Shown here: in pieces, positions 7,646-25,208 of the stretch | Position numbering within the stretch: position 1 is the first letter of the stretch | Layout: each line of letters opens with the position of its first letter | Source: an uncultured Planctomycetia bacterium | GTDB lineage: Bacteria > Omnitrophota > Gorgyraeia > Duberdicusellales > 4484-171 | Direction of reading: 5' to 3' | NCBI GenBank assembly: GCA_964629785.1 | Contig: CAZVRU010000001.1 | Location: forward strand, 34,018 to 98,017 | DNA: 64,000 nt | Notes under the pieces: generated by a model | What the model was told of the DNA's origin: nothing | The model's input: only the letters and a program-made list of their open reading frames with translations | Databases searched by the model: none | Made by a program: the position numbers and the translations under genes

Positions 7646-8017
7646 TCAGGCCGGCTGAAGGTCATATTCACGAACCAGAAAACCGGATCTTAACCGTATC
7701 TTTTTAGCGCTGAGCCGGCCGGCGATCTCTTGCAGCACATTGCTTTTGTTGTAGTCGCAGATGATCACGGCAAAAGCCTCAGACAGGCAGCGGGAAGGGA
7801 TTCTGTCCAGAAAACGGGACACAATCGAAGGAAGCCCCCAGTAATAAGCCGGCGATATAATACCGACCTGTTCGACCTCATATTCAGGAAAAGCTTCGAT
7901 GGCTATCTGGATGGAAACCGCCCGGACGTCTTTTATCTCTGCGGCAAGCTTTGCCGCAGCAGAAACAGAACGCTGGTCACGGGAATAATAGCACAATAAC
8001 GTGGCCATTCGCAACAT
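7646..8017 (-). CDS. Small flavodoxin-fold-like protein with a divergent FMN loop
   Basis: 123 aa. LLCYYSRDQRS and GIISPAYYWGLPSIVSRFLDRI resemble the flavodoxin-family patterns (YYSxTGNT and SPvYwgglp..vk.Fldr). A GAGAGGAA Shine-Dalgarno sequence is present. Confidence 0.45.
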   Translation of the reverse strand: MLRMATLLCYYSRDQRSVSAAAKLAAEIKDVRAVSIQIAIEAFPEYEVEQVGIISPAYYWGLPSIVSRFLDRIPSRCLSEAFAVIICDYNKSNVLQEIAGRLSAKKIRLRSGFLVREYDLQPA

Positions 8018-8077
8018 TTCCTCTCTTTATCGACAATATTACCCCCCGCCGGAGCACCTTAAATTAAAGATAGTGTT

Positions 8078-8106
8078 ATTGTAACTGTTTTAAAGACCAA
8101 GGTCAA
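8078..8106 (-). promoter_or_regulatory. sigma70-like promoter for the flavodoxin-like/MCP/xth unit
   Basis: On the minus strand: TTGACC (8106-8101), 17 nt spacer, TACAAT (8083-8078). Confidence 0.45.
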
Positions 8107-8174
8107 GTATATGTGCTGTCGGGATTTAAAAAAAAGGTTCATCAGGGAAAAAAGCAAAGGGTGGGCAAAGAATA

Positions 8175-9860
8175 TCAGGAAAAGACCTCTTCCCGGCGGT
8201 CTTTCTCTTTTTTATGCGTCGTCCAGCGCATTTCGCTGAGCACGCCCTGGGCAATATTGGTAAGATGATCGCCGATCTTCTCGAAATTATCGACCAGATC
8301 AAGAAAGACGATCCCTGACTTCAGGTTGCACTGTCCGTTATTCAAACGGTTGACATGAGCTTTTTTCAGGTCGGTCTGAAGACGGTTGATGCGTTCTTCG
8401 CGCTGCAGGACGCTCTGGGCCAGGTCAAGATCGTTCTGCTGGAACGACTGCCTGGTTTCAATCATCATCCGGTGCAATTCGTCCCACATCCCGCTCAGCT
8501 CACCGCAGGCCTCGTCAGTAAAAGGGAGGTTCTCATCGACCCGGCGTTCCAGGGATTCGACGATATTTTCGGCGTGATCGCCGATCCGCTCGATATCGTT
8601 TACGCTGTGCAATAATACCGGCAATGACTCAGACTGTTCTTCGGAAAGGTTGCGCTGGGACAGTTCGATCAGATAATGGGTTATTTCCGACTGAAGATTG
8701 TCCACGGCATCTTCGATCTCATTGACCCGCCGGATCACTTTTATATTTTTTTCCAGAAAAGCTTTTACGGCCAGGGATACGGAACGCGAGGCCAGCTCCA
8801 GCATGCGGACCGACTCACGGCGGGCCTGTTCCAGAGCGATAGGCGGAGTATCGAGAAGATGTCTTTCCAGATACTGAGCGCCGGGCTCGATCGCTCCTTT
8901 GCGGGTCGGCACCAGCATCACCGACATCTTTTCCAGAAAAGACAAAAAAGGAAGAAAAATAACCGCATTGGCTACTTTAAATACGCTGTTAGCCACGGCA
9001 ATATAGAACATGATGTTCTTCAGAGTGACCGAACCGGGAATAATAAAATCGATGAACCGGACAAACCATCCGGTATAAACAAAAATAAGCATATAGGCAA
9101 CGCCGACTACATTGAACAGGGTATGGGACATCGCGGCCCGCCGGGCATTGCGGTTGGTGCCGATGGCTGCCAGCTGGGCAGTGATCGTGGTACCGATATC
9201 GCCTCCCAGTATCAATGGTATGGCCGCCGGAAAAGATATCAGTCCGTTAAAGGCCATAACCTGGATAACGGCGATAGTCGCGCTGGAGCTCTGTAAAAGC
9301 ATGGTAAAGGCCATGCCCACCACCACCCCCAGAAGCGGATCGCTGCCGAAAGAAAGAAAAAGCTGTTTTATATGCTGGCTCTGCTGCAGGGGGGCAAAAG
9401 CGTCCTTCATAAACCCCAGGCCTATGAACAACATGCCGAAACCCATAATTATCTGGCCCAATGATTTGGAATTACGGGTCTTGCCCAGAGCATTGACAAT
9501 GACCCCGATACCCACTGCCGGAAGGGCGTACTGAGTAATATTGAATACCGACATCGAAGAAACAAGCCAGGCCGTAAAGGTGGTACCGATGTTGGCACCG
9601 ATAATGACGCTGATAGCCTGGCGCAGGGCCAGAAGTCCGGCATTGACAAAACCGATGACCATTACGCTGGTAGCGCTGGAAGACTGGATAAAACAGGTGA
9701 CTGCCGCGCCGACCATAATGCCCATGAGCGGTATACGGGTCATCATATGCAGGATGTTCTTGAGACGGGTGCCGGCGATTTTTTTAAGACCGTCGGACAT
9801 TACCTGCATGCCGAAGAAAAAAAATCCCAGACCGCCGATCAGATAAAAAATCAATTGCAT
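8175..9860 (-). CDS. Na/Pi cotransporter family protein with C-terminal PhoU-like repeats (paralog 2)
   Basis: MQLIFYLIGGLGFFFFGMQVMSDGLKKIAGTRLKNIL..., two SSSAT-containing Na_Pi_cotrans repeats, and C-terminal NDIERIGDH / NFEKIGDH PhoU motifs. The ORF track starts at GTG 9869. I prefer ATG 9860 because both paralogs then begin MQLIF. Confidence 0.85.
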   Translation of the reverse strand: MQLIFYLIGGLGFFFFGMQVMSDGLKKIAGTRLKNILHMMTRIPLMGIMVGAAVTCFIQSSSATSVMVIGFVNAGLLALRQAISVIIGANIGTTFTAWLVSSMSVFNITQYALPAVGIGVIVNALGKTRNSKSLGQIIMGFGMLFIGLGFMKDAFAPLQQSQHIKQLFLSFGSDPLLGVVVGMAFTMLLQSSSATIAVIQVMAFNGLISFPAAIPLILGGDIGTTITAQLAAIGTNRNARRAAMSHTLFNVVGVAYMLIFVYTGWFVRFIDFIIPGSVTLKNIMFYIAVANSVFKVANAVIFLPFLSFLEKMSVMLVPTRKGAIEPGAQYLERHLLDTPPIALEQARRESVRMLELASRSVSLAVKAFLEKNIKVIRRVNEIEDAVDNLQSEITHYLIELSQRNLSEEQSESLPVLLHSVNDIERIGDHAENIVESLERRVDENLPFTDEACGELSGMWDELHRMMIETRQSFQQNDLDLAQSVLQREERINRLQTDLKKAHVNRLNNGQCNLKSGIVFLDLVDNFEKIGDHLTNIAQGVLSEMRWTTHKKEKDRREEVFS

Positions 9861-9953
9861 GGAAGACACCTGTGTTCAAACATTACCGGGGAAAAGAAGG
9901 CAGGAATTAACCATATTGGAAAAATATTTGAATATCCGCAATTCATTCGGGAT

Positions 9954-10021: not shown

Positions 10022-11686
10022 TCAGCTCAGATCATGTTTATGAAGTTTCCAGCGCATTTTGCCGATCACGCCTTCGGCAATATTGGTAAGATGATCGCCG
10101 ATCTTCTCGAGATTATCGATAAAATCTATGAATACCACTCCGGCCCTGAGATCGCAGCACGCTTTGCCCAGGCGATCGACATGGGCTTTTTTCAGTTCTT
10201 TCTGAAGCAGGTTGATCTTCTTTTCCCGGGACAAAACGCTCTGAGCTGCCCGGATATCGTTCTTTTTCAAGGCGATCCGGGTCTCGATACACATGCTGTG
10301 CAGTTCGTTCCACATCAAAGTCGCTTCCTGAAGCGCTTCATCGCTGAACTGAAGCTTCTCATCGATGGCCCGCTCGGCAAGTTCGACTATATTTTCCGAA
10401 TGATCGCCGATCCGCTCGATATCGTTTACGCTGTGCAAAAGTACCGGTAATGATTCGGAATATTCCGGAGAAAGATTATTCTGAGACAGTTCGACCAGAT
10501 AACAGGTGATCTCAGACTGAAGGCTGTCCACTGCTTCCTCCAGTTCCGGGATCTGCTTGAACAATCCCGACTGCCTTTCCAGAAAACTTTTTACCGCAGT
10601 GGACACCGAGGTAGTGGCTAAACCGAGCATCCTCACCATTTCTTTAACTGCCTGTTCCAGAGCTATCGCCGGCGTATTCAAAAGATGGCGTTCCAGGAAC
10701 TGAGGTTTAAGTTCCACTGCCCCTTTCTTTTTCGGGACCAGAATAACAGTCGCTTTTTCGATAAATCCAAGAAAAGGCAGAAACACCAGCGTGTTGGTCA
10801 CATTAAAAACGCTATGGGCCACGGCAATATAAAACATAACATTTTTCAGTGTGATACTGCCGGGAATAAGCATATCCACTGCCTTGACAAACCAGCCGCT
10901 ATAAACAAAACCCAGCATATACGCAGTACCGATCACATTGAACAGAGTATGGGACATGGCCACCCGCCGGGCATTGGTATTGGCACCGGCTGCGGCGATC
11001 TGGGCAGTTATAGTGGTACCGATATTATCTCCCAGTATCAGCGGGATGGCTGCCGGGAAAGAGATCAATCCGTTAAAAGCCAGTACCTGGACAATAGCAA
11101 TGGTAGCGCTGGAACTCTGCAGAAGCATGGTGGCGACGGTTCCCACCAGCACTCCCAGAAGCGGATTGCGGGCAAAACTGACAAAAAGCTCCTGGAGATG
11201 GGGGCTGTCACGCAGCGGTTCAAAAGCGTCTTTCATCATGCTCAGGCCCAGAAACAGCATTCCGAAGCCCATCAGCACCTGGCCCCAGAAACGTACGCTC
11301 TTCCTCCTGGCGAAGGTCAAAGTAAAAAACCCGATACCGATAGCCGGCAAAGCATAATGCGTAATCTTGAACACCGACATCGAGGAGACAAGCCAGGCCG
11401 TAAAGGTGGTACCGATATTGGCGCCCATGATCACGCTGATAGCCTGGCGCAGAGAAACAAGGCCGGCATTGACAAAACCGATGACCATGATGCTGGTAGC
11501 GCTGGAAGACTGGATAAAACAGGTGACTGCCGCGCCGACCAGTACGGCTATCAGCGGGACTCTGGTCATCATATGCAGGATATTCTTCAGGCGGGTGCCG
11601 GCGATCTTTTTAAGACCGTCGGACATTGTCTGCATACCGTAAAAGAAAAGGCCTAATCCTCCGATAAGAAAAAATATAAGCTGCAT
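10022..11686 (-). CDS. Na/Pi cotransporter family protein with C-terminal PhoU-like repeats (paralog 1)
   Basis: MQLIFFLIGGLGLFFYGMQTMSDGLKKIAGTRLKNIL... It has the same architecture as 8175-9860. The ORF-track start at 11713 is a TTG codon, and ATG 11686 aligns with the paralog. Confidence 0.85.
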   Translation of the reverse strand: MQLIFFLIGGLGLFFYGMQTMSDGLKKIAGTRLKNILHMMTRVPLIAVLVGAAVTCFIQSSSATSIMVIGFVNAGLVSLRQAISVIMGANIGTTFTAWLVSSMSVFKITHYALPAIGIGFFTLTFARRKSVRFWGQVLMGFGMLFLGLSMMKDAFEPLRDSPHLQELFVSFARNPLLGVLVGTVATMLLQSSSATIAIVQVLAFNGLISFPAAIPLILGDNIGTTITAQIAAAGANTNARRVAMSHTLFNVIGTAYMLGFVYSGWFVKAVDMLIPGSITLKNVMFYIAVAHSVFNVTNTLVFLPFLGFIEKATVILVPKKKGAVELKPQFLERHLLNTPAIALEQAVKEMVRMLGLATTSVSTAVKSFLERQSGLFKQIPELEEAVDSLQSEITCYLVELSQNNLSPEYSESLPVLLHSVNDIERIGDHSENIVELAERAIDEKLQFSDEALQEATLMWNELHSMCIETRIALKKNDIRAAQSVLSREKKINLLQKELKKAHVDRLGKACCDLRAGVVFIDFIDNLEKIGDHLTNIAEGVIGKMRWKLHKHDLS

Positions 11687-11730
11687 GGTATCGCTGCTCT
11701 TTCCGGTCGGCAACTCAAGGCAGACCAGCT

Positions 11731-11774: not shown

Positions 11775-12836
11775 TTATTCCGGAATAAACGCGGTCTTTT
11801 CGTCAAGGAGAAGTACAAATGCCGCCAGAAGCCGGGAAGCGTCTTCCAGATCCTGGAAACTGACCACTTCCACCGGTGTGTGCATATAGCGGTTGGGTAT
11901 GCTTACCAGACCGGTAGCCACTCCGGAACGGGTAAGCTGCATCACATTGGCGTCAGTACCGGTCGCCCGGGAAATAGCTTCGACCTGATAAGAAATCTTG
12001 TTCTCTTCGGCAGCCTTTATCAGAAGTTCGAATACCCTGGGATTGATGTTGGGGCCGCGGGCAATTACCGGTCCTTTACCCAGGCTGATATCACCGAACT
12101 TACGTTTGTTCATGCCGGGAAAATCAGTGGCAAAAGTGACGTCCACGGCTATACCTACTTCCGGCGCCAGGCCATAAGCGCTGGTCTTAGCGCCGCGCAG
12201 ACCGATCTCTTCCTGAACAGTGGCGACTCCGAACAGGGAAAACACCGGATTTTGACCGGAAAGCAGACGCAAAGTCTCGCTGACCACAAAAGCTCCGGCT
12301 TTATCATCAAATCCCCGCCCCACTGCTTTGCCGTCCTCAAGACTCTGAAAACCCACTGCCGGTACCGCGCAATCGCCCACACTGACCAGGGTCCTGGCCT
12401 GCTCCTCGTCTCTGGCCCCGATATCGATCCAGAGGTGATCAATATCCACTACTTTCTTCCTCTCTTCACTTTCCATGAGATGGACGGGCTTTTTACCCAC
12501 TACACCAAGAACTTTTCCTTTTCGGCCGTATACCCAGACTCTCTGACCGGGCACCAGATGAAGATCGATACAGCCGATGGTCGAGACAAAAAGATAACCT
12601 TTTTTATCGATATACTTGACCATATAGCCGACCTCGTCGATATGGCCGGCCAGCATTATCCGGCGCTGCCCTTTTTTATTGAGAACGGCTATACTGTTGC
12701 CGTGCGTGTCGGCATAGACCTCGTCGCAGAAAGTACGGTTTTTTTCTTTCCAGAGAGCGGCGGCCTCGGTTTCGAATCCGGAAGGGCTGGGAGTTTCAAT
12801 GAGTTTTTTTAAAAATTCCTGTGACTGTTCGTTCAT
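11775..12836 (-). CDS. M42 family metallopeptidase (FrvX / glutamyl-aminopeptidase-like)
   Basis: MNEQSQEFLKKLIETPSPSGFE..., LAGHIDEVGYMV, GRGFDDKAG, QEEIGLRGA. The start is moved from 12908 to ATG 12836, which has an AAGGAG sequence 5 nt upstream and leaves the upstream gene unoverlapped. Confidence 0.85.
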   Translation of the reverse strand: MNEQSQEFLKKLIETPSPSGFETEAAALWKEKNRTFCDEVYADTHGNSIAVLNKKGQRRIMLAGHIDEVGYMVKYIDKKGYLFVSTIGCIDLHLVPGQRVWVYGRKGKVLGVVGKKPVHLMESEERKKVVDIDHLWIDIGARDEEQARTLVSVGDCAVPAVGFQSLEDGKAVGRGFDDKAGAFVVSETLRLLSGQNPVFSLFGVATVQEEIGLRGAKTSAYGLAPEVGIAVDVTFATDFPGMNKRKFGDISLGKGPVIARGPNINPRVFELLIKAAEENKISYQVEAISRATGTDANVMQLTRSGVATGLVSIPNRYMHTPVEVVSFQDLEDASRLLAAFVLLLDEKTAFIPE

Positions 12837-21917: not shown

Positions 21918-22784
21918 CTAATTCCCCTGTTTGTTAAGACATCTGCAATTTTTATCCGGGCGGATCTTCTCCAGGGCCTGTTTTTCCTGGGGGACAAAAC
22001 GTTTCTGACGCGACAATAGTTCTTCGAAATCTACCAGATGACCGTCAAAATCAGGACCGTCCACACAGCAGAATCTGACCTTACCGCCTTCTGTGAGACG
22101 GCATCCGCCGCACATACCTGTACCGTCGATCATTATCGTGCAGAGACAGACGATCGTCTTTATCCCGTAAGGACGGGTTAATTCCGACACTGCTTTCATC
22201 ATCGGCAGGGGGCCGACACAATAGACCAGTTTAAAATCACCGTCTTTTTCCAGTATCCGCTGCAGAGGTCCGGTAACAAAACCTTTTTCGCCGAAACTTC
22301 CGTCATCGGTCACCGGATAAAACGAATCGGAAAACGATTTTATCTCGTCTTTCAAAACCAGAAGATCGCGGGACCGGGCTCCCAGGATGGTATGCAATGA
22401 GCAGCCTGCTTTTTTCAAAGCCTTTACTACCGGATAGACCTCGGCAATTCCCACTCCGCCTCCCACAATAAGTACCTTGCCGTAATTTTCGATAGGAGTG
22501 GGATTTCCCAGAGGGCCGACAAAGGAATAAAGACTTTGTCCGACCTCTAATGTCCCCAGTCTTTTTGTAGTATACCCCACTTCCTGAAACATTATGGTCA
22601 CTGTCCCTTTTCGGGCATCGGTATCGACAATGGTCAAAGGGATGCGTTCACCCTGCTCACTGACCATAAGGATCACGAACTGACCGGGCTGCGCTTTAGC
22701 GGCGACCTCCGGAGAAGCGATGACCATAGAGGTTATCCGCGGCTCCTGATCTCCGCTTACGATTTTCTTCTCGATGATTTTCAT
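21918..22784 (-). CDS. FAD/NAD-binding ferredoxin-reductase-like small subunit (NfnA / SudB / PyrK-like) with a C-terminal 2Fe-2S Cys motif
   Basis: 288 aa. PGQFVILMV, GPLGNP, VGGGVGIAEVYP, C-terminal GTGMCGGCR...FCCVDGP. A GAGGAGGG Shine-Dalgarno sequence is present. Confidence 0.8.
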   Translation of the reverse strand: MKIIEKKIVSGDQEPRITSMVIASPEVAAKAQPGQFVILMVSEQGERIPLTIVDTDARKGTVTIMFQEVGYTTKRLGTLEVGQSLYSFVGPLGNPTPIENYGKVLIVGGGVGIAEVYPVVKALKKAGCSLHTILGARSRDLLVLKDEIKSFSDSFYPVTDDGSFGEKGFVTGPLQRILEKDGDFKLVYCVGPLPMMKAVSELTRPYGIKTIVCLCTIMIDGTGMCGGCRLTEGGKVRFCCVDGPDFDGHLVDFEELLSRQKRFVPQEKQALEKIRPDKNCRCLNKQGN

Positions 22785-22840
22785 GAACCCTCCTCAGATT
22801 ATCCTGATTATCCGGCCAAAAGCCGCCCGGACAGGCCTCT

Positions 22841-22883
22841 AAAAACAAAAAAGGCGCCCTTTCTTATGTGAAAAGACGCCTTT
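22841..22883 (-). terminator. Intrinsic terminator-type hairpin about 55 nt upstream of the NfnA-like start codon. It is either the terminator of the upstream module or a leader attenuator.
   Basis: On the minus strand: AAAGGCGTCTTT-tcacataag-AAAGG(G)CGCCTTT, a stem of about 12 bp with one bulge and one G-U pair. It is followed by TTTGTTTTT. Confidence 0.7.
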
Positions 22884-22896
22884 GTCTTGAAAATAT

Positions 22897-22924
22897 ATAG
22901 TACCACATCAGTAAAACGTGTCAA
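22897..22924 (-). promoter_or_regulatory. sigma70-like promoter (extended -10) upstream of the terminator hairpin and the NfnAB-like operon
   Basis: On the minus strand: TTGACA (22924-22919), 16 nt spacer, TGgTACTAT (-10 at 22902-22897). Confidence 0.45.
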
Positions 22925-22963
22925 CTTTCTTTTAAGCCGCATTAAACGACCACAGACTACAGT

Positions 22964-22998
22964 CGATAATCTATGGTTTATGGTCTATGGTCGATAGT
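22964..22998. repeat. Degenerate 7-bp tandem repeat array (5 units)
   Basis: cgataat|ctatggt|ttatggt|ctatggt|cgatagt, read directly from the sequence. It directly abuts the 48-nt core repeat. Confidence 0.75.
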
Positions 22999-23001
22999 CA
23001 A

Positions 23002-23049
23002 ATTTTGCAATGCTAAATCCCGCCTTGCCGTCGAGGCAGGTTGCAATTT
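23002..23049. repeat. 48-nt conserved core repeat, copy A
   Basis: attttgcaatgctaaatcccgccttgccgtcgaggcaggttGcaattt. It matches 24287-24334 at 47/48 positions in the same orientation and contains the bulged hairpin CCT(T)GCC-gtcga-GGCAGG (23023-23040). Confidence 0.9.
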
Positions 23050-23060
23050 ACAATTTGCAT

Positions 23061-23095
23061 TTTCTCTCGCCTATCGCCTCTCGCCTATTGCCTAT
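23061..23095. repeat. Degenerate 7-bp tandem repeat array (5 units)
   Basis: tttctct|cgcctat|cgcctct|cgcctat|tgcctat. Confidence 0.75.
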
Positions 23096-23127
23096 ATCCC
23101 ATGAATTTTAGCATCGAGTATACTTCC

Positions 23128-23655
23128 TCAGTATTCGATGCCTTCCCGGGCCCGGACGCCTCGGTCAAAAGGATGTTTTTCTTTGACAATGACGCTCAGA
23201 TAATCAGCCAGATGGCACAGCTCAGGCGGGGCAGTTCTGCCGGTCATTATTATTTCGGTCCGGGAAGCTTTTTTAATAAGCTTTTTCAGACGAGCCAGAC
23301 TGCAGAATCCCTGGTCCAGGCTGTTCAGTATCTCGTCGAGAACAATCACCTCATATCTATTTTTTTCCAGAAATTTTTCGATCTTATCCAGGGCCGCGGC
23401 AGTGGAAGCGCGTATTTCTTTCTTTTTAAACGGCAGTTTCCCCTGCTGAAAAAGAGGATGTATCTGATGAGAAAATCTTTCGATTTTCAGGGGAAGACGG
23501 CAACTGGCCAGGGCTTTGATAAAACCGCTGGGAATATTCCGGCCCTTTAAGAACTGGGCTACATATACTTTTTTGCCGAATCCCGCAGCCCGCAAGGCCA
23601 GGCCCAGGGCAGCAGTGGTCTTCCCCTTGCCGTCTCCTATATAAAAATGGACCAT
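23128..23655 (-). CDS. cobO: ATP:cob(I)alamin / cob(I)yrinic acid a,c-diamide adenosyltransferase (CobO/CobA/BtuR family)
   Basis: 175 aa. P-loop YIGDGKGKTTAALGLALRAAG, then VAQFLKG, LDEILN, and C-terminal HPFDRGVRAREGIEY. Its 5' end overlaps the upstream gene by 19 nt. Confidence 0.85.
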   Translation of the reverse strand: MVHFYIGDGKGKTTAALGLALRAAGFGKKVYVAQFLKGRNIPSGFIKALASCRLPLKIERFSHQIHPLFQQGKLPFKKKEIRASTAAALDKIEKFLEKNRYEVIVLDEILNSLDQGFCSLARLKKLIKKASRTEIIMTGRTAPPELCHLADYLSVIVKEKHPFDRGVRAREGIEY

Positions 23656-24143
23656 TGTCTCACTATCTCCGGAATAACCATGCTCAACACCGTCACTATC
23701 CCTCCGGCGATCATCACGCCCAGGAAAATAGCCGTAAACGCTTTTTTGGTATCAAGTTCGACCAGAGTCGCAGCCACGCTTCCGGTCCATGCTCCAGTGA
23801 CCGGCAACGGTATGGCTACGAACATGACCAGGCCCCAGAACCCCCAGGTCCGTACTGCTGTTGAACGTCTTTCCACTGCCGAAAACCACCAGCGGAAAAA
23901 AGACCCGACGAATCTGATCCCGGTGAGCCGGTGGAAAAAATATCGGAAAAAAAGAAGCAGCGGTATCACCGGAGCCAGGTTGCCCAGTAAAGCCAGAAAA
24001 TATGTCCTGAGCGGCGGCAGATGGAATGACACTATGCCCACCGGTATTGCCAGTCGTAATTCGAATACCGGCAGCATTCCCATCAATGACACTGCCAGAT
24101 CTTTAGGCAGTCCGTTTATCCAGTTATAAAGCTCTGCGATCAT
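23637..24143 (-). CDS. Small polytopic membrane protein (COG2426-like putative small multidrug export protein family)
   Basis: Four or five hydrophobic segments. LPVFELRLAIPVG resembles the family motif. The start is uncertain: the ORF track uses TTG 24167, which lies inside the heptamer array. I prefer ATG 24143. Neither has a clear Shine-Dalgarno sequence. Confidence 0.55.
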   Translation of the reverse strand: MIAELYNWINGLPKDLAVSLMGMLPVFELRLAIPVGIVSFHLPPLRTYFLALLGNLAPVIPLLLFFRYFFHRLTGIRFVGSFFRWWFSAVERRSTAVRTWGFWGLVMFVAIPLPVTGAWTGSVAATLVELDTKKAFTAIFLGVMIAGGIVTVLSMVIPEIVRQWSIFI

Positions 24144-24150
24144 AAACAGT

Positions 24151-24213
24151 CGATAGCCAATGGTCAATAGTCACAAATAGCGTTTAGCGGATAGCGGTTA
24201 GGGTCTAGGGCGC
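24151..24213. repeat. Degenerate 7-bp tandem repeat array (about 9 units)
   Basis: cgatagc|caatggt|caatagt|cacaaat|agcgttt|agcggat|agcggtt|agggtct|agggcgc. The first units resemble the array at 22964-22998. Confidence 0.7.
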
Positions 24214-24233
24214 GCTTCGCGCTATTCCATTGA

Positions 24234-24268
24234 AAAATTTAAAACGTAAATTTTAAAATGCAAAATGC
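24234..24268. repeat. 7-bp-periodic A-tract array (5 units)
   Basis: aaaattt|aaaacgt|aaatttt|aaaatgc|aaaatgc. Confidence 0.7.
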
Positions 24269-24286
24269 AATCCTATCCCACGTCCT

Positions 24287-24334
24287 ATTTTGCAATGCTA
24301 AATCCCGCCTTGCCGTCGAGGCAGGTTACAATTT
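24287..24334. repeat. 48-nt conserved core repeat, copy B
   Basis: attttgcaatgctaaatcccgccttgccgtcgaggcaggttAcaattt. It lies 1285 bp from copy A in direct orientation, with the single difference at 24328. Confidence 0.9.
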
Positions 24335-24354
24335 CCGCATCCTTCCGTACTTTT

Positions 24355-24392
24355 GAAATTCGAACGATTAGAATAATAGGACTTCGAATTTC
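24355..24392. promoter_or_regulatory. Perfect 10-bp inverted repeat (candidate operator or AT-rich hairpin)
   Basis: GAAATTCGAA (24355-24364), 18 nt spacer, TTCGAATTTC (24383-24392). Confidence 0.5.
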
Positions 24393-24430
24393 ATCTCCCG
24401 ATGAATTGTGTACAATTTTCGGGACTTAAA

Positions 24431-24458
24431 CCCCGAGAATCTGAAAGATTCCTCGGGG
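24431..24458. other. Long stem-loop in the pcm-downstream gap
   Basis: CCCCGAGAATC-tgaaa-GATT(C)CTCGGGG, 11 bp with one bulge. The 5' arm can alternatively pair with TCGGG at 24419-24423. There is no clear T-run on either strand. Confidence 0.55.
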
Positions 24459-24557
24459 CCGATAAGCTGCGGAAAAATATCGTATATATTGTTTCCGCTA
24501 TTCAGGCGCATCGGGGTTCCTTTTGCCTTTTTCCTTTTTACTTGCCGAGACAGGCGG

Positions 24558-25208
24558 CTATGTTTCGAACCCGTATTTACCGAGAAGCGGCACGAATACG
24601 CACCAGCCCAGAGAGCTCTGCGTGTATTCATCGGCAGTGATCCTGTCCAGGCAGATCAGCTGCTGTTCTACCCTGTCACCTATCGGAATGATCATCCGGC
24701 CCGGACAGCCTAACTGCTTTTTCAAAGGTGCCGGAACTTCAGGCGCCGCAGCACTGACAATTATCTTATCAAAAGGAGCTTTTTCTTCCCAGCCCTGGCT
24801 GCCGTCGCCCTGAATGAGCGACGCTTTAAGCCGCAATTCGTCTAAAACCTCCCGGGCCCGGGAAACAAGACCGGAAACAAGCTCGACACTGAATAGCGAG
24901 GCCTGCATAAAAGCCAGCAAAGCGGTCTGATAACCGCTGCCGGCGCCCACTTCCAGGACTTTATCCCCCGGCTTTATTTCCAGGACTTCCAGCATCAAGG
25001 CCACTATGTACGGCTGGGAGATGGTCTGTCCCCAGCCAATGGGCAAAGGGCAATCGTCATAGGCCCGGCTCTGATCCTGAGGCAGGACAAACTTTTCGCG
25101 GGGTATTCCGCTGAAAGCCTCGAGCACCGACCGGTCGGTTATACCCCGGCCCCTGAGCTGATGCGCCACCATCTGCCGGCGATGCACAGCGAAATCATTT
25201 TTTATCAT
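24558..25208 (-). CDS. pcm: Protein-L-isoaspartate O-methyltransferase
   Basis: 216 aa. GQTISQPYIVALMLE, VLEVGAGSGYQTALLA, and C-terminal FVPLLG. Confidence 0.9.
   Translation of the reverse strand: MIKNDFAVHRRQMVAHQLRGRGITDRSVLEAFSGIPREKFVLPQDQSRAYDDCPLPIGWGQTISQPYIVALMLEVLEIKPGDKVLEVGAGSGYQTALLAFMQASLFSVELVSGLVSRAREVLDELRLKASLIQGDGSQGWEEKAPFDKIIVSAAAPEVPAPLKKQLGCPGRMIIPIGDRVEQQLICLDRITADEYTQSSLGWCVFVPLLGKYGFET

Follow-up and report, generated by a model that had tools for sequence, protein, structure and literature searches.

Work on tandem arrays of heptanucleotides has, to our knowledge, dealt almost exclusively with cyanobacteria and giant sulfur bacteria, and where such arrays come from and what they do is unsettled. 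The short tandemly repeated repetitive (STRR) sequences of heterocystous cyanobacteria are present in about 100 or more copies over the genome, with the consensus units CCCCAGT (STRR1), TTGGTCA (STRR2) and CAACAGT (STRR3). Elhai and colleagues are said to have described, in 2008, small dispersed repeat (SDR) elements of 21-27 nt in Nostoc that are also nested in tandem heptamers. In Nostoc PCC 7120, a (GACYAAT)x8 array overlaps the ATG start codon of recO. Heptanucleotides also form the commonest 5-11-nt class of long simple sequence repeats (LSSRs) in many bacteria (Mrazek, 2007, as summarised in PMC4679880). Moreover, TAACTGA direct repeats occur in marine Beggiatoaceae, some Cyanobacteria and Bacteroidetes (MacGregor, 2015, PMC4679880), and one heptamer sequence is dominant throughout the BOGUAY genome, where related heptamers are rarely repeated (PMC4679880). 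Here, a stretch of 64 kb from contig CAZVRU010000001.1 of an uncultured Omnitrophota bacterium (hereafter the window) was analysed, in which heptamer arrays lie in the PCMT–Sm_multidrug_ex and CobO–NfnA spacers together with two copies of a 48-nt core that contains a 22-bp palindrome. These arrays are repeat DNA resembling the cyanobacterial STRRs in another lineage, and not a new machine.

Period-7 repeats were sought in the whole window using Tandem Repeats Finder (TRF; 17 rows) and a lag-7 self-match scan, in which a cluster was defined as at least 16 of 21 matching positions and the null was obtained from 100 first-order Markov simulations. All six period-7 rows of TRF and one period-14 row fell in 22970-24543. 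In addition, the self-match scan returned four lag-7 clusters, all in the 22962-24543 region, compared with 0.04 expected from the simulations, and 0-1 clusters anywhere in the window for each other lag between 4 and 12. Among the 24 intergenic stretches measuring 40 nt or more, the period-7 tandem repeats were confined to two: only the core-bearing spacers exceeded 15/21 at lag 7, and the remaining spacers reached at most 11/21. The excess at lag 7 and its restriction to two spacers indicate that the signal is real and is not a general property of the spacers of this genome. The heptamer signal is therefore real, far above chance and locally concentrated. This agrees with the first-pass annotation, which had seen a 7-bp period nowhere else in the 64 kb and had named two ways in which it could be wrong, namely no excess of period 7 over shuffled sequence, or ordinary low-complexity sequence in most spacers; neither was found. 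Its description of four strictly periodic stretches was correct in their periodicity and overstated in their strictness, since matches range from 73 to 100% (TRF) and 24234-24254 is weakly periodic. The arrays are degenerate, and two of them, at 23041-23063 and 24517-24543, had been overlooked. Individual arrays are short (2.3-4.1 copies, TRF scores 31-53), at least six different and unrelated unit families are found inside 1.6 kb, and all arrays lie outside open reading frames with Pfam support.

Comparison of the two spacers revealed how the arrays differ. The GTCNATR array followed by the core has the same order and orientation in both, and the two GTCNATR arrays are homologous, with six units in one and four in the other and a length difference of exactly 14 nt. 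Accordingly, the colinear anchors ACAGTCGATA and ATGGTCRATAGTCA stand 28 nt apart in the 22962-23003 array and 14 nt apart in the 24149-24176 array. The right flank of the core also differs by whole heptamers, the length difference being one 7-nt unit; copy 1 reads as three units here and copy 2 as one. The CTMTCGC array scored better in TRF as a 14-mer (93% matches) than as a 7-mer (86%), which suggests duplication in steps of two units. Furthermore, unit identity fell with distance, from 0.65 through 0.62, 0.44, 0.42 and 0.30 to 0.27 at lags of one to six units in spacer 1 (CobO–NfnA) and from 0.53 down to 0.15 in spacer 2 (PCMT–Sm_multidrug_ex), as local duplication followed by drift predicts and a common binding motif does not. 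Taken together, the decay between units, the whole-unit length differences and the 14-nt repeat point to stepwise slipped-strand duplication and not to a fixed binding motif. With the palindrome excised, each spacer becomes one continuous patchwork of heptamers, numbering about 16 units in spacer 1 and about 23 in spacer 2. The CTMTCGC, TAGCGGN, AAAATGC and AAAGGAA arrays are not common to both spacers, and array and core are separated by 2 nt in one copy but by 113 nt in the second.

With respect to the genes, the CTMTCGC array begins 30 nt past the stop codon of CobO and the TTCCTTT array lies 14 nt past that of PCMT. The 24149-24176 array abuts a start codon, stopping 3 nt from the ATG of Sm_multidrug_ex at 24143, where no Shine-Dalgarno sequence is present; the other five arrays are downstream of stop codons or in mid-spacer. 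Stop triplets were found on the sense strand of 18 of the 24 array units, compared with 31-51% expected from composition, and three heptamer units bearing a stop triplet are enough to close all reading frames. The arrays can persist only between genes, since a 7-nt unit shifts the frame and a stop triplet is present in most units.

The 48-nt core, whose two copies the arrays were first described as flanking, occurs in the window at 22997-23049 and 24282-24334 with 94% identity and an exact 41-mer in common. Arrays are indeed present on both sides, but the core is itself built of heptamer units, and the 22-bp imperfect palindrome CCCGCCTTGCC/GTCGAGGCAGG interrupts them. The palindrome has 11-nt arms that are complementary at 8 of 11 positions when G-T pairs are counted (three mismatches by strict Watson-Crick pairing). 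The TTGCAAT units on its two sides are 36 nt apart and out of register when the palindrome is present, and 14 nt apart and in register without it. In-silico removal of the palindrome raised the lag-7 identity over 22964-23100 from 0.56 to 0.64 (108 positions), and lags 5, 6, 8 and 9 after an excision placed 1 nt off gave identities of 0.26-0.31. Moreover, period-7 matches straddling the junction were highest at a deletion length of 22 (24/42) and amounted to 2-7/42 at lengths of 18-20 and 25-26. The core is therefore composite, with heptamer units interrupted by a 22-bp palindrome.

Several other identities were considered for the core and rejected. A sigma-70 promoter (TTGCCG-18-TACAAT) could be drawn in copy 1 only, since the spacing differs in copy 2. 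A sigma-54 site fitted weakly in spacing by eye, with GG and TTGCA present and GGCA absent, and for a tRNA 3'-end remnant or attachment (att) site the T-stem partner was absent, as judged from the sequence only. Rfam gave no credible match at E up to 5 for 22700-24700 or at E up to 1 for the palindrome-bearing contigs L002 and L003.

On balance, we consider it probable that the arrays are heptamer repeats of the STRR/LSSR type that arose by 7-nt slippage in two expanded Omnitrophota spacers, with a small palindromic repeat alongside. The arrays would then be non-coding DNA in which units of 7 nt, and sometimes 14 nt, are duplicated and lost by slipped-strand steps, with point-mutational decay afterwards. 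An ancestral segment, composed of a GTCNATR array followed by TTGCAAT units and the palindrome, would have been copied from one spacer into the other, and the two segments would since have drifted apart by whole heptamers. No sequence-specific function would be needed for the arrays. We infer slippage as the generating process and this order of events, and likewise any causal link between palindrome and arrays, whether the palindrome promotes slippage or the arrays are its preferred target. Several points weigh against this account. Slippage alone leaves unexplained why the arrays are restricted to the two palindrome-bearing spacers of 24, and the evidence on the arrays covers 64 kb of this genome. 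The enrichment of stop triplets, together with several arrays that abut start codons, could reflect selection for function. The core copies agree at 47 of 48 nt beside far more diverged arrays, which suggests recent copying or constraint on the core. In addition, spacers with the palindrome and without heptamer arrays were found on four contigs from other lineages (L014, L026, L002 and L003), so that arrays do not always accompany the palindrome.

The loci of related bacteria bear on the expansion of the spacers and on the origin of the units. The gene order MGDG (monogalactosyldiacylglycerol) synthase–LpxL–GT2 (glycosyltransferase family 2)–PCMT–Sm–CobO(–NfnA–NfnB) is kept in five related contigs, two of which have overlapping genes with no spacers between them. 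The long spacers are therefore best regarded as lineage-specific expansions. An inserted Sm–CobO cassette between the two cores was ruled out, because the pair is syntenic in the five relatives. Contig L015 carries TAGCGTT x4.4 directly after CobO, syntenic with the CTMTCGC array of the window, and in L017 a TAACTTA x4.7 array ends 8 nt before the CobO ATG and an AATTAGC array precedes Sm. The arrays of these relatives are not homologous to those of the window, yet they occupy the same spacers; unrelated heptamer units at conserved spacers favour a mutational origin through 7-nt slippage over the horizontal spread of one motif. Furthermore, (GAGTAGN)n arrays are present in L019, and the Candidatus Shapirobacteria contig L013 has TTAGAAA x4.3 with 100% matches upstream of rpsM. 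Among TRF periods, 7 was the most frequent in the loci examined from Omnitrophota and Shapirobacteria, in keeping with the published dominance of heptamers among bacterial LSSRs, and it was absent from the Bacteroidota loci examined. A full-text literature search found no earlier report of heptamer arrays in Candidatus Omnitrophota. Their presence there and in Shapirobacteria makes the phenomenon wider than cyanobacteria and giant sulfur bacteria.

Some of these loci contain further heptamer repeats. In the Shapirobacteria ribosomal-protein cluster, many spacers are full of AT-rich period-7 arrays (L022 715-817, 1879-1952 and 2076-2184). In the Omnitrophota relative L019 (JGI 3300009320, 7755-8205), a gene for a 121-aa protein of PF05635 (23S_rRNA_IVP / Avd-like four-helix) is inserted between LpxL and GT2 and is bounded exactly by inverted (GAGTAGN)n and (CTNNCTA)n arrays (RNAduplex -41.5 kcal/mol, z = -5). 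This locus looks like an intervening-sequence (IVS)-type cassette with a stem built from heptamer repeats. In the window, a long-range RNA stem of the IVS/RNase III-like kind between the inverted arrays flanking Sm–CobO was rejected (duplex -20.1 kcal/mol, z = -0.07). In L017, an (ACGAAGG)x6.6 array at 12058-12103 lies within the NfnB coding region, in the variable linker that joins the Fe-S domain to the FAD domain, where it encodes GGRNEGRRTKDEERRMKDDKEN; here a 7-nt repeat is tolerated in frame.

Comparison with the described systems places the arrays among known repeats. The first-pass annotation had named the cyanobacterial STRRs as the only well-known bacterial parallel; the comparison is apt, with GACCATA, GACTATT and GACCATT close to the Nostoc (GACYAAT)8 array, but LSSRs and TAACTGA arrays are parallels as well. 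Like STRRs, the window has intergenic tandem heptamers with several unit families side by side, its units are 5-6/7 identical to STRR2 read as TGACCAA, and its GACTATT GACCATT GGCTATC GACTGTT array, like that of Nostoc recO, runs to a start codon. In contrast to STRRs, the host belongs to the Omnitrophota, the arrays are short and degenerate and occupy 2 of 24 spacers in 64 kb, and the units are GTCNATR, CTMTCGC, TAGCGGN, AAAATGC, TTGCAAT and TTCCTTT, of which the closest forms, ATGGTCA and CAATAGT, agree at 6/7 with the STRR consensus. The arrays share with LSSRs the preference for heptamers, the exclusion from coding DNA, the proposed slippage and the sporadic distribution across phyla, and they have a 5-11-nt unit and a length beyond chance; however, LSSRs are usually long and near-perfect, whereas the runs of the window are old and decayed. 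The TAACTGA repeats are likewise intergenic, stop-triplet heptamers that often stand a few nucleotides upstream of starts without a canonical ribosome-binding site, and the TAACTTA array upstream of CobO in L017 resembles them. No TAACTGA array was found by TRF in the window, which, unlike BOGUAY, has many coexisting units, with inconsistent orientation to genes. The arrays behave like STRRs and heptanucleotide LSSRs, and the palindrome behaves like the small dispersed repeats of the REP (repetitive extragenic palindromic)/SDR type.

The palindrome was also found outside the window, in L002, L003, L012, L013, L014 and L026, and all nine palindrome-bearing sites (9/9) are intergenic. With the loop of the window, neither the remaining window nor 185,579 species-representative genomes yielded a further copy, save for one Bacteroidota metagenome-assembled genome (MAG; JBCCZF01), which has an exact 27-mer containing the palindrome twice (L002 and L003). 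These Bacteroidota copies sit inside a 280-330-nt miniature inverted-repeat transposable element (MITE) with terminal inverted repeats AGAGCCTGTTTA. One MITE copy (L002 6265-6315, compared with L003) contains an additional block nested within it (about 45 nt, CCTGCC..GGCGGG..GGCAGG), a small palindromic indel with the same words. When the loop was left free, three metagenome contigs with the same stems and other loops were recovered, always in spacers. A stem search of viral contigs gave eight matches without flank similarity, about the chance number for 17 specified bases, and a plasmid search returned nothing relevant.

Close pairs of genomes indicated that the palindrome is a discrete unit. 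L013, assigned to Candidatus Shapirobacteria by RpoA, differs in its rpsD–rpoA spacer from its relatives L022 and L025 (84% identical RpoA) by exactly the 22 nt of the palindrome, while the sequences on its two sides, GGTTGCAAATTATTCAT and TTTCTGRTAAAAT, are the same; this indel lies in a Shapirobacteria promoter. In L022 (3650-3960) and L025 (2650-2760), the palindrome-less spacer is occupied instead by a repeat of about 180 nt (gccgtcattctgacc...), present once or twice. L014 is Gottesmanbacteria-like. Similarly, L026 (1136-1200) and L027 (818-826), Gottesmanbacteria-like members of the Candidate Phyla Radiation (CPR), share 97.6% identity along 2.5 kb as well as an identical TspO protein; they differ by a single 56-nt indel, which consists of a perfect 20-bp palindrome CCTGCCTGCCGGCAGGCAGG and flanks and is absent in L027. 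The 9-nt spacer of L027, without the palindrome, carries a GGAGG Shine-Dalgarno sequence. In L014, the CPR element has the left flank TTGTCATGCTGAAT, which agrees at 11 of 14 positions with that in the window, TTGCAATGCTAAAT. These comparisons show that other phyla either gain or lose the palindrome en bloc, and the 48-nt core is therefore the Omnitrophota version of a tiny palindromic unit.

Like REP elements, REP doublets forming hairpins (REPINs) and SDRs, the palindrome is short (22 bp), imperfect and extragenic, with block gain or loss but no target-site duplication, and its presence or absence was seen at orthologous sites in CPR/Shapirobacteria. As is reported for SDRs, it is nested in other repeats, namely heptamers in the window and a MITE in the Bacteroidota MAG. 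Whereas a REP family is normally restricted to one species, the stem of this palindrome is nearly unchanged across Omnitrophota, two CPR/Patescibacteria lineages and Bacteroidota. There are two copies in 64 kb, no GTAG motif of the REP type adjoins the palindrome, and no mobilising gene, whether a REP-associated tyrosine transposase (RAYT) or another, was identified. Tentatively, the palindrome with its flanks of about 14 nt may be an active ultra-small mobile element moved by an enzyme that is possibly horizontally shared; the element would either prefer heptamer arrays or promoter words resembling TTGCAAT as targets or provoke local 7-nt slippage by stalling replication; arrays and palindrome would then be a trans-phylum counterpart of the cyanobacterial STRR and SDR. 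We consider this extension rather unlikely. The 22-bp palindrome offers a clean, datable marker with which the enzyme responsible for moving elements of this size can be sought.

Alternatively, the arrays could be cis-regulatory sites in mRNA, where phased UAG/GAG triplets (NAG-N4) would be bound by a HutP-like oligomeric protein controlling a GC hairpin, or where an unstructured leader without a Shine-Dalgarno sequence would tune translation initiation, a role that has been put forward for TAACTGA repeats. Downstream of CobO, the sense strand does read UAG-N4-UAG-N4-GAG-N4-UAG-N4-GAG, then a GC hairpin, then UAG-N4-UAA-N4-UAG, so that, as in HutP/TRAP operators, NAG triplets with 4-nt spacers stand on both sides of a GC-rich hairpin in the CobO–NfnA spacer. 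HutP binds XAG triplets that are arranged as two groups of three around a GC-rich terminator stem, and the cleavages mapped at U498, U505 and U512 have a 7-nt period (PMC2425495). The proximity of the 24149-24176 array to the Shine-Dalgarno-less ATG, that of the L017 TAACTTA array to the CobO ATG, the excess of stop triplets on the sense strand and the published parallels in Nostoc recO and BOGUAY also speak for regulation. However, upstream of Sm_multidrug_ex the phased TAG is antisense and the sense strand reads CUA-N4, leaving the PCMT–Sm sense strand without the pattern. The hairpin of the CobO–NfnA spacer has no U-tract, its fold is no better than that of shuffled sequence (z -0.7 to -1.8) and it is unconvincing as a terminator; the linker from array to hairpin is about 23 nt instead of 12-17 nt. 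A full HutP operator, with at least three NAG triplets twice, a 12-17-nt linker and a terminator stem, was not found in either array-bearing spacer. Moreover, the units vary between arrays, share no common sequence and decay with distance, which is unexpected for the sites of one protein and argues against a single binding specificity of the HutP kind. We know of no cognate HutP/TRAP-type protein in Omnitrophota. A regulatory role of the arrays is unlikely.

It is more improbable still that arrays and core form one composite MITE-like element, with the arrays as functional ends, that was inserted independently in both spacers. The shared order and orientation of GTCNATR array and core, the terminal inverted repeats around the palindrome in the Bacteroidota MAG, the 56-nt CPR indel that takes in flanks homologous to the left flank of the core, and the strongly pairing inverted arrays that bound the PF05635 cassette of L019 would all suit such an element. 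In the window, however, the segments have no bounding terminal inverted repeats or target-site duplications, the gap between array and core is not constant (2 nt vs. 113 nt), four of the array types occur in one spacer only, and the arrays flanking Sm–CobO do not pair together (z about 0); an element with this loop is also absent elsewhere, bar the single MAG. Chance low-complexity sequence or an assembly artefact, which the short arrays and modest TRF scores might suggest, is effectively refuted by the four lag-7 clusters observed against 0.04 expected, by the analogous arrays in independent assemblies of relatives, and by independent Logan assemblies (SRR2187629), in which contig L001 covers 23030-24196 with 100% identity to the window, arrays included, and contig L016 covers the region downstream of 23031. 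L001 and L016 break inside the palindrome at 23030/23031, as expected for a repeat, and the end of L001 at 24196 falls inside the TAGCGG array and could reflect heterogeneity of array length in the sequenced population. The result is also a warning that such repeats interrupt short-read assemblies.

The coordinates of the arrays, palindromes and neighbouring genes are listed in Table 1.

Table 1. Repeats, palindromes and genes in and around the two array-bearing spacers (positions in the window; percentages are TRF matches)
Feature	Position	Strand	Description	Evidence
Heptamer array GTCNATR/CTATGGT	22962..23003		6 units, sense GACCATA type	TRF 22970-22992 TCTATGG x3.3, 87%
Palindrome left flank, copy 1	23005..23018		TTGCAAT GCTAAAT	Within the 48-nt core
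22-bp imperfect palindrome, copy 1	23019..23040	+	CCCGCCTTGCC GTCGA GGCAGG	Exact match
TTGCAAT TTACAAT TTGCATT units	23041..23063		Right end of core amplified	Lag-7 cluster 23036-23063; in register once palindrome excised
Heptamer array CTMTCGC x5	23064..23098		Sense TAGGCGA/GAGGCGA, 14-nt higher-order repeat	TRF 23067-23095 TCGCCTA x4.1, 86% (93% as 14-mer)
Heptamer array GTCNATR x4	24149..24176		Sense GACTATT GACCATT GGCTATC GACTGTT	TRF 24148-24173 AGTCAAT x3.7, 73%
Heptamer array ATAGCGT TTAGCGG ATAGCGG TTAGGGT CTAGGGC	24177..24211		TAG every 7 nt on the + strand	TRF 24178-24201 TAGCGGT x3.4, 82%
Small GC palindrome GCGCG-CTT-CGCGC	24210..24222		Between two arrays	Read from sequence; pairs in predicted fold
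AT-rich heptamer array AAAATKN	24233..24270		Perfect only at 24255-24270 (AAAATGC x2.3, 100%)	TRF
Palindrome left flank, copy 2	24290..24303		TTGCAAT GCTAAAT	
22-bp imperfect palindrome, copy 2	24304..24325	+	Same sequence as copy 1	
Palindrome right flank, copy 2	24326..24334		TTACAATTT; one heptamer unit (copy 1: three)	
Terminator-like hairpin	24431..24458	-	CCCCGAG...CTCGGGG then UUU; downstream of PCMT	Read from sequence
Heptamer array TTCCTTT x3.9	24517..24543		Sense AAAGGAA/AAAGGCA, 85%	TRF and lag-7 cluster
PCMT	25208-24558	-		
Sm_multidrug_ex membrane protein gene	23637..24143	-		Pfam PF06695, homologue alignment, independent 168-aa gene call
CobO/BtuR ATP:corrinoid adenosyltransferase gene	23128..23655	-		Pfam PF02572, E = 1.3e-46
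NfnA	22784-21918	-	Then NfnB and glutamate dehydrogenase, same strand	

The arrays also bear on the annotation of the membrane-protein gene. The N-terminus of Sm_multidrug_ex read from ATG 24143, MIAELYNWINGLPK, aligns with its homologues, and the 8-residue extension from TTG 24167 has no counterpart among them. In agreement with the first-pass annotation, which had argued for the downstream ATG, and with an independent gene call that uses it, homologue alignment thus supports ATG 24143, and not TTG 24167, as the true start of Sm_multidrug_ex, and the start codon of this gene is thereby fixed. The gene content had also been judged not to be cyanobacterial; the closest named homologues of CobO are indeed from Candidatus Omnitrophota/Omnitrophica, and the nearest non-identical relative is 65% identical. 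The terminator scan did not report the hairpin at 24431-24458, which has a loop above the length that the scan accepts.

Further features were observed in the neighbourhood. At 22850-22924 on the minus strand, there is a promoter-like TTGACA-16-TACTAT with TG, after which come a terminator-like hairpin of 14 bp and a U-run, some 65 nt upstream of the start codon of NfnA; this arrangement could be an attenuator. A gene for a GAF-ANTAR regulator is present in the same NfnAB–glutamate dehydrogenase–GlnA cluster. Finally, two tandem paralogous Na/Pi-cotransporter–PhoU genes are located on the minus strand at 8175-9869 and 10022-11713 (564 and 563 aa), with a spacing of 1826 nt and 70-86% DNA identity.

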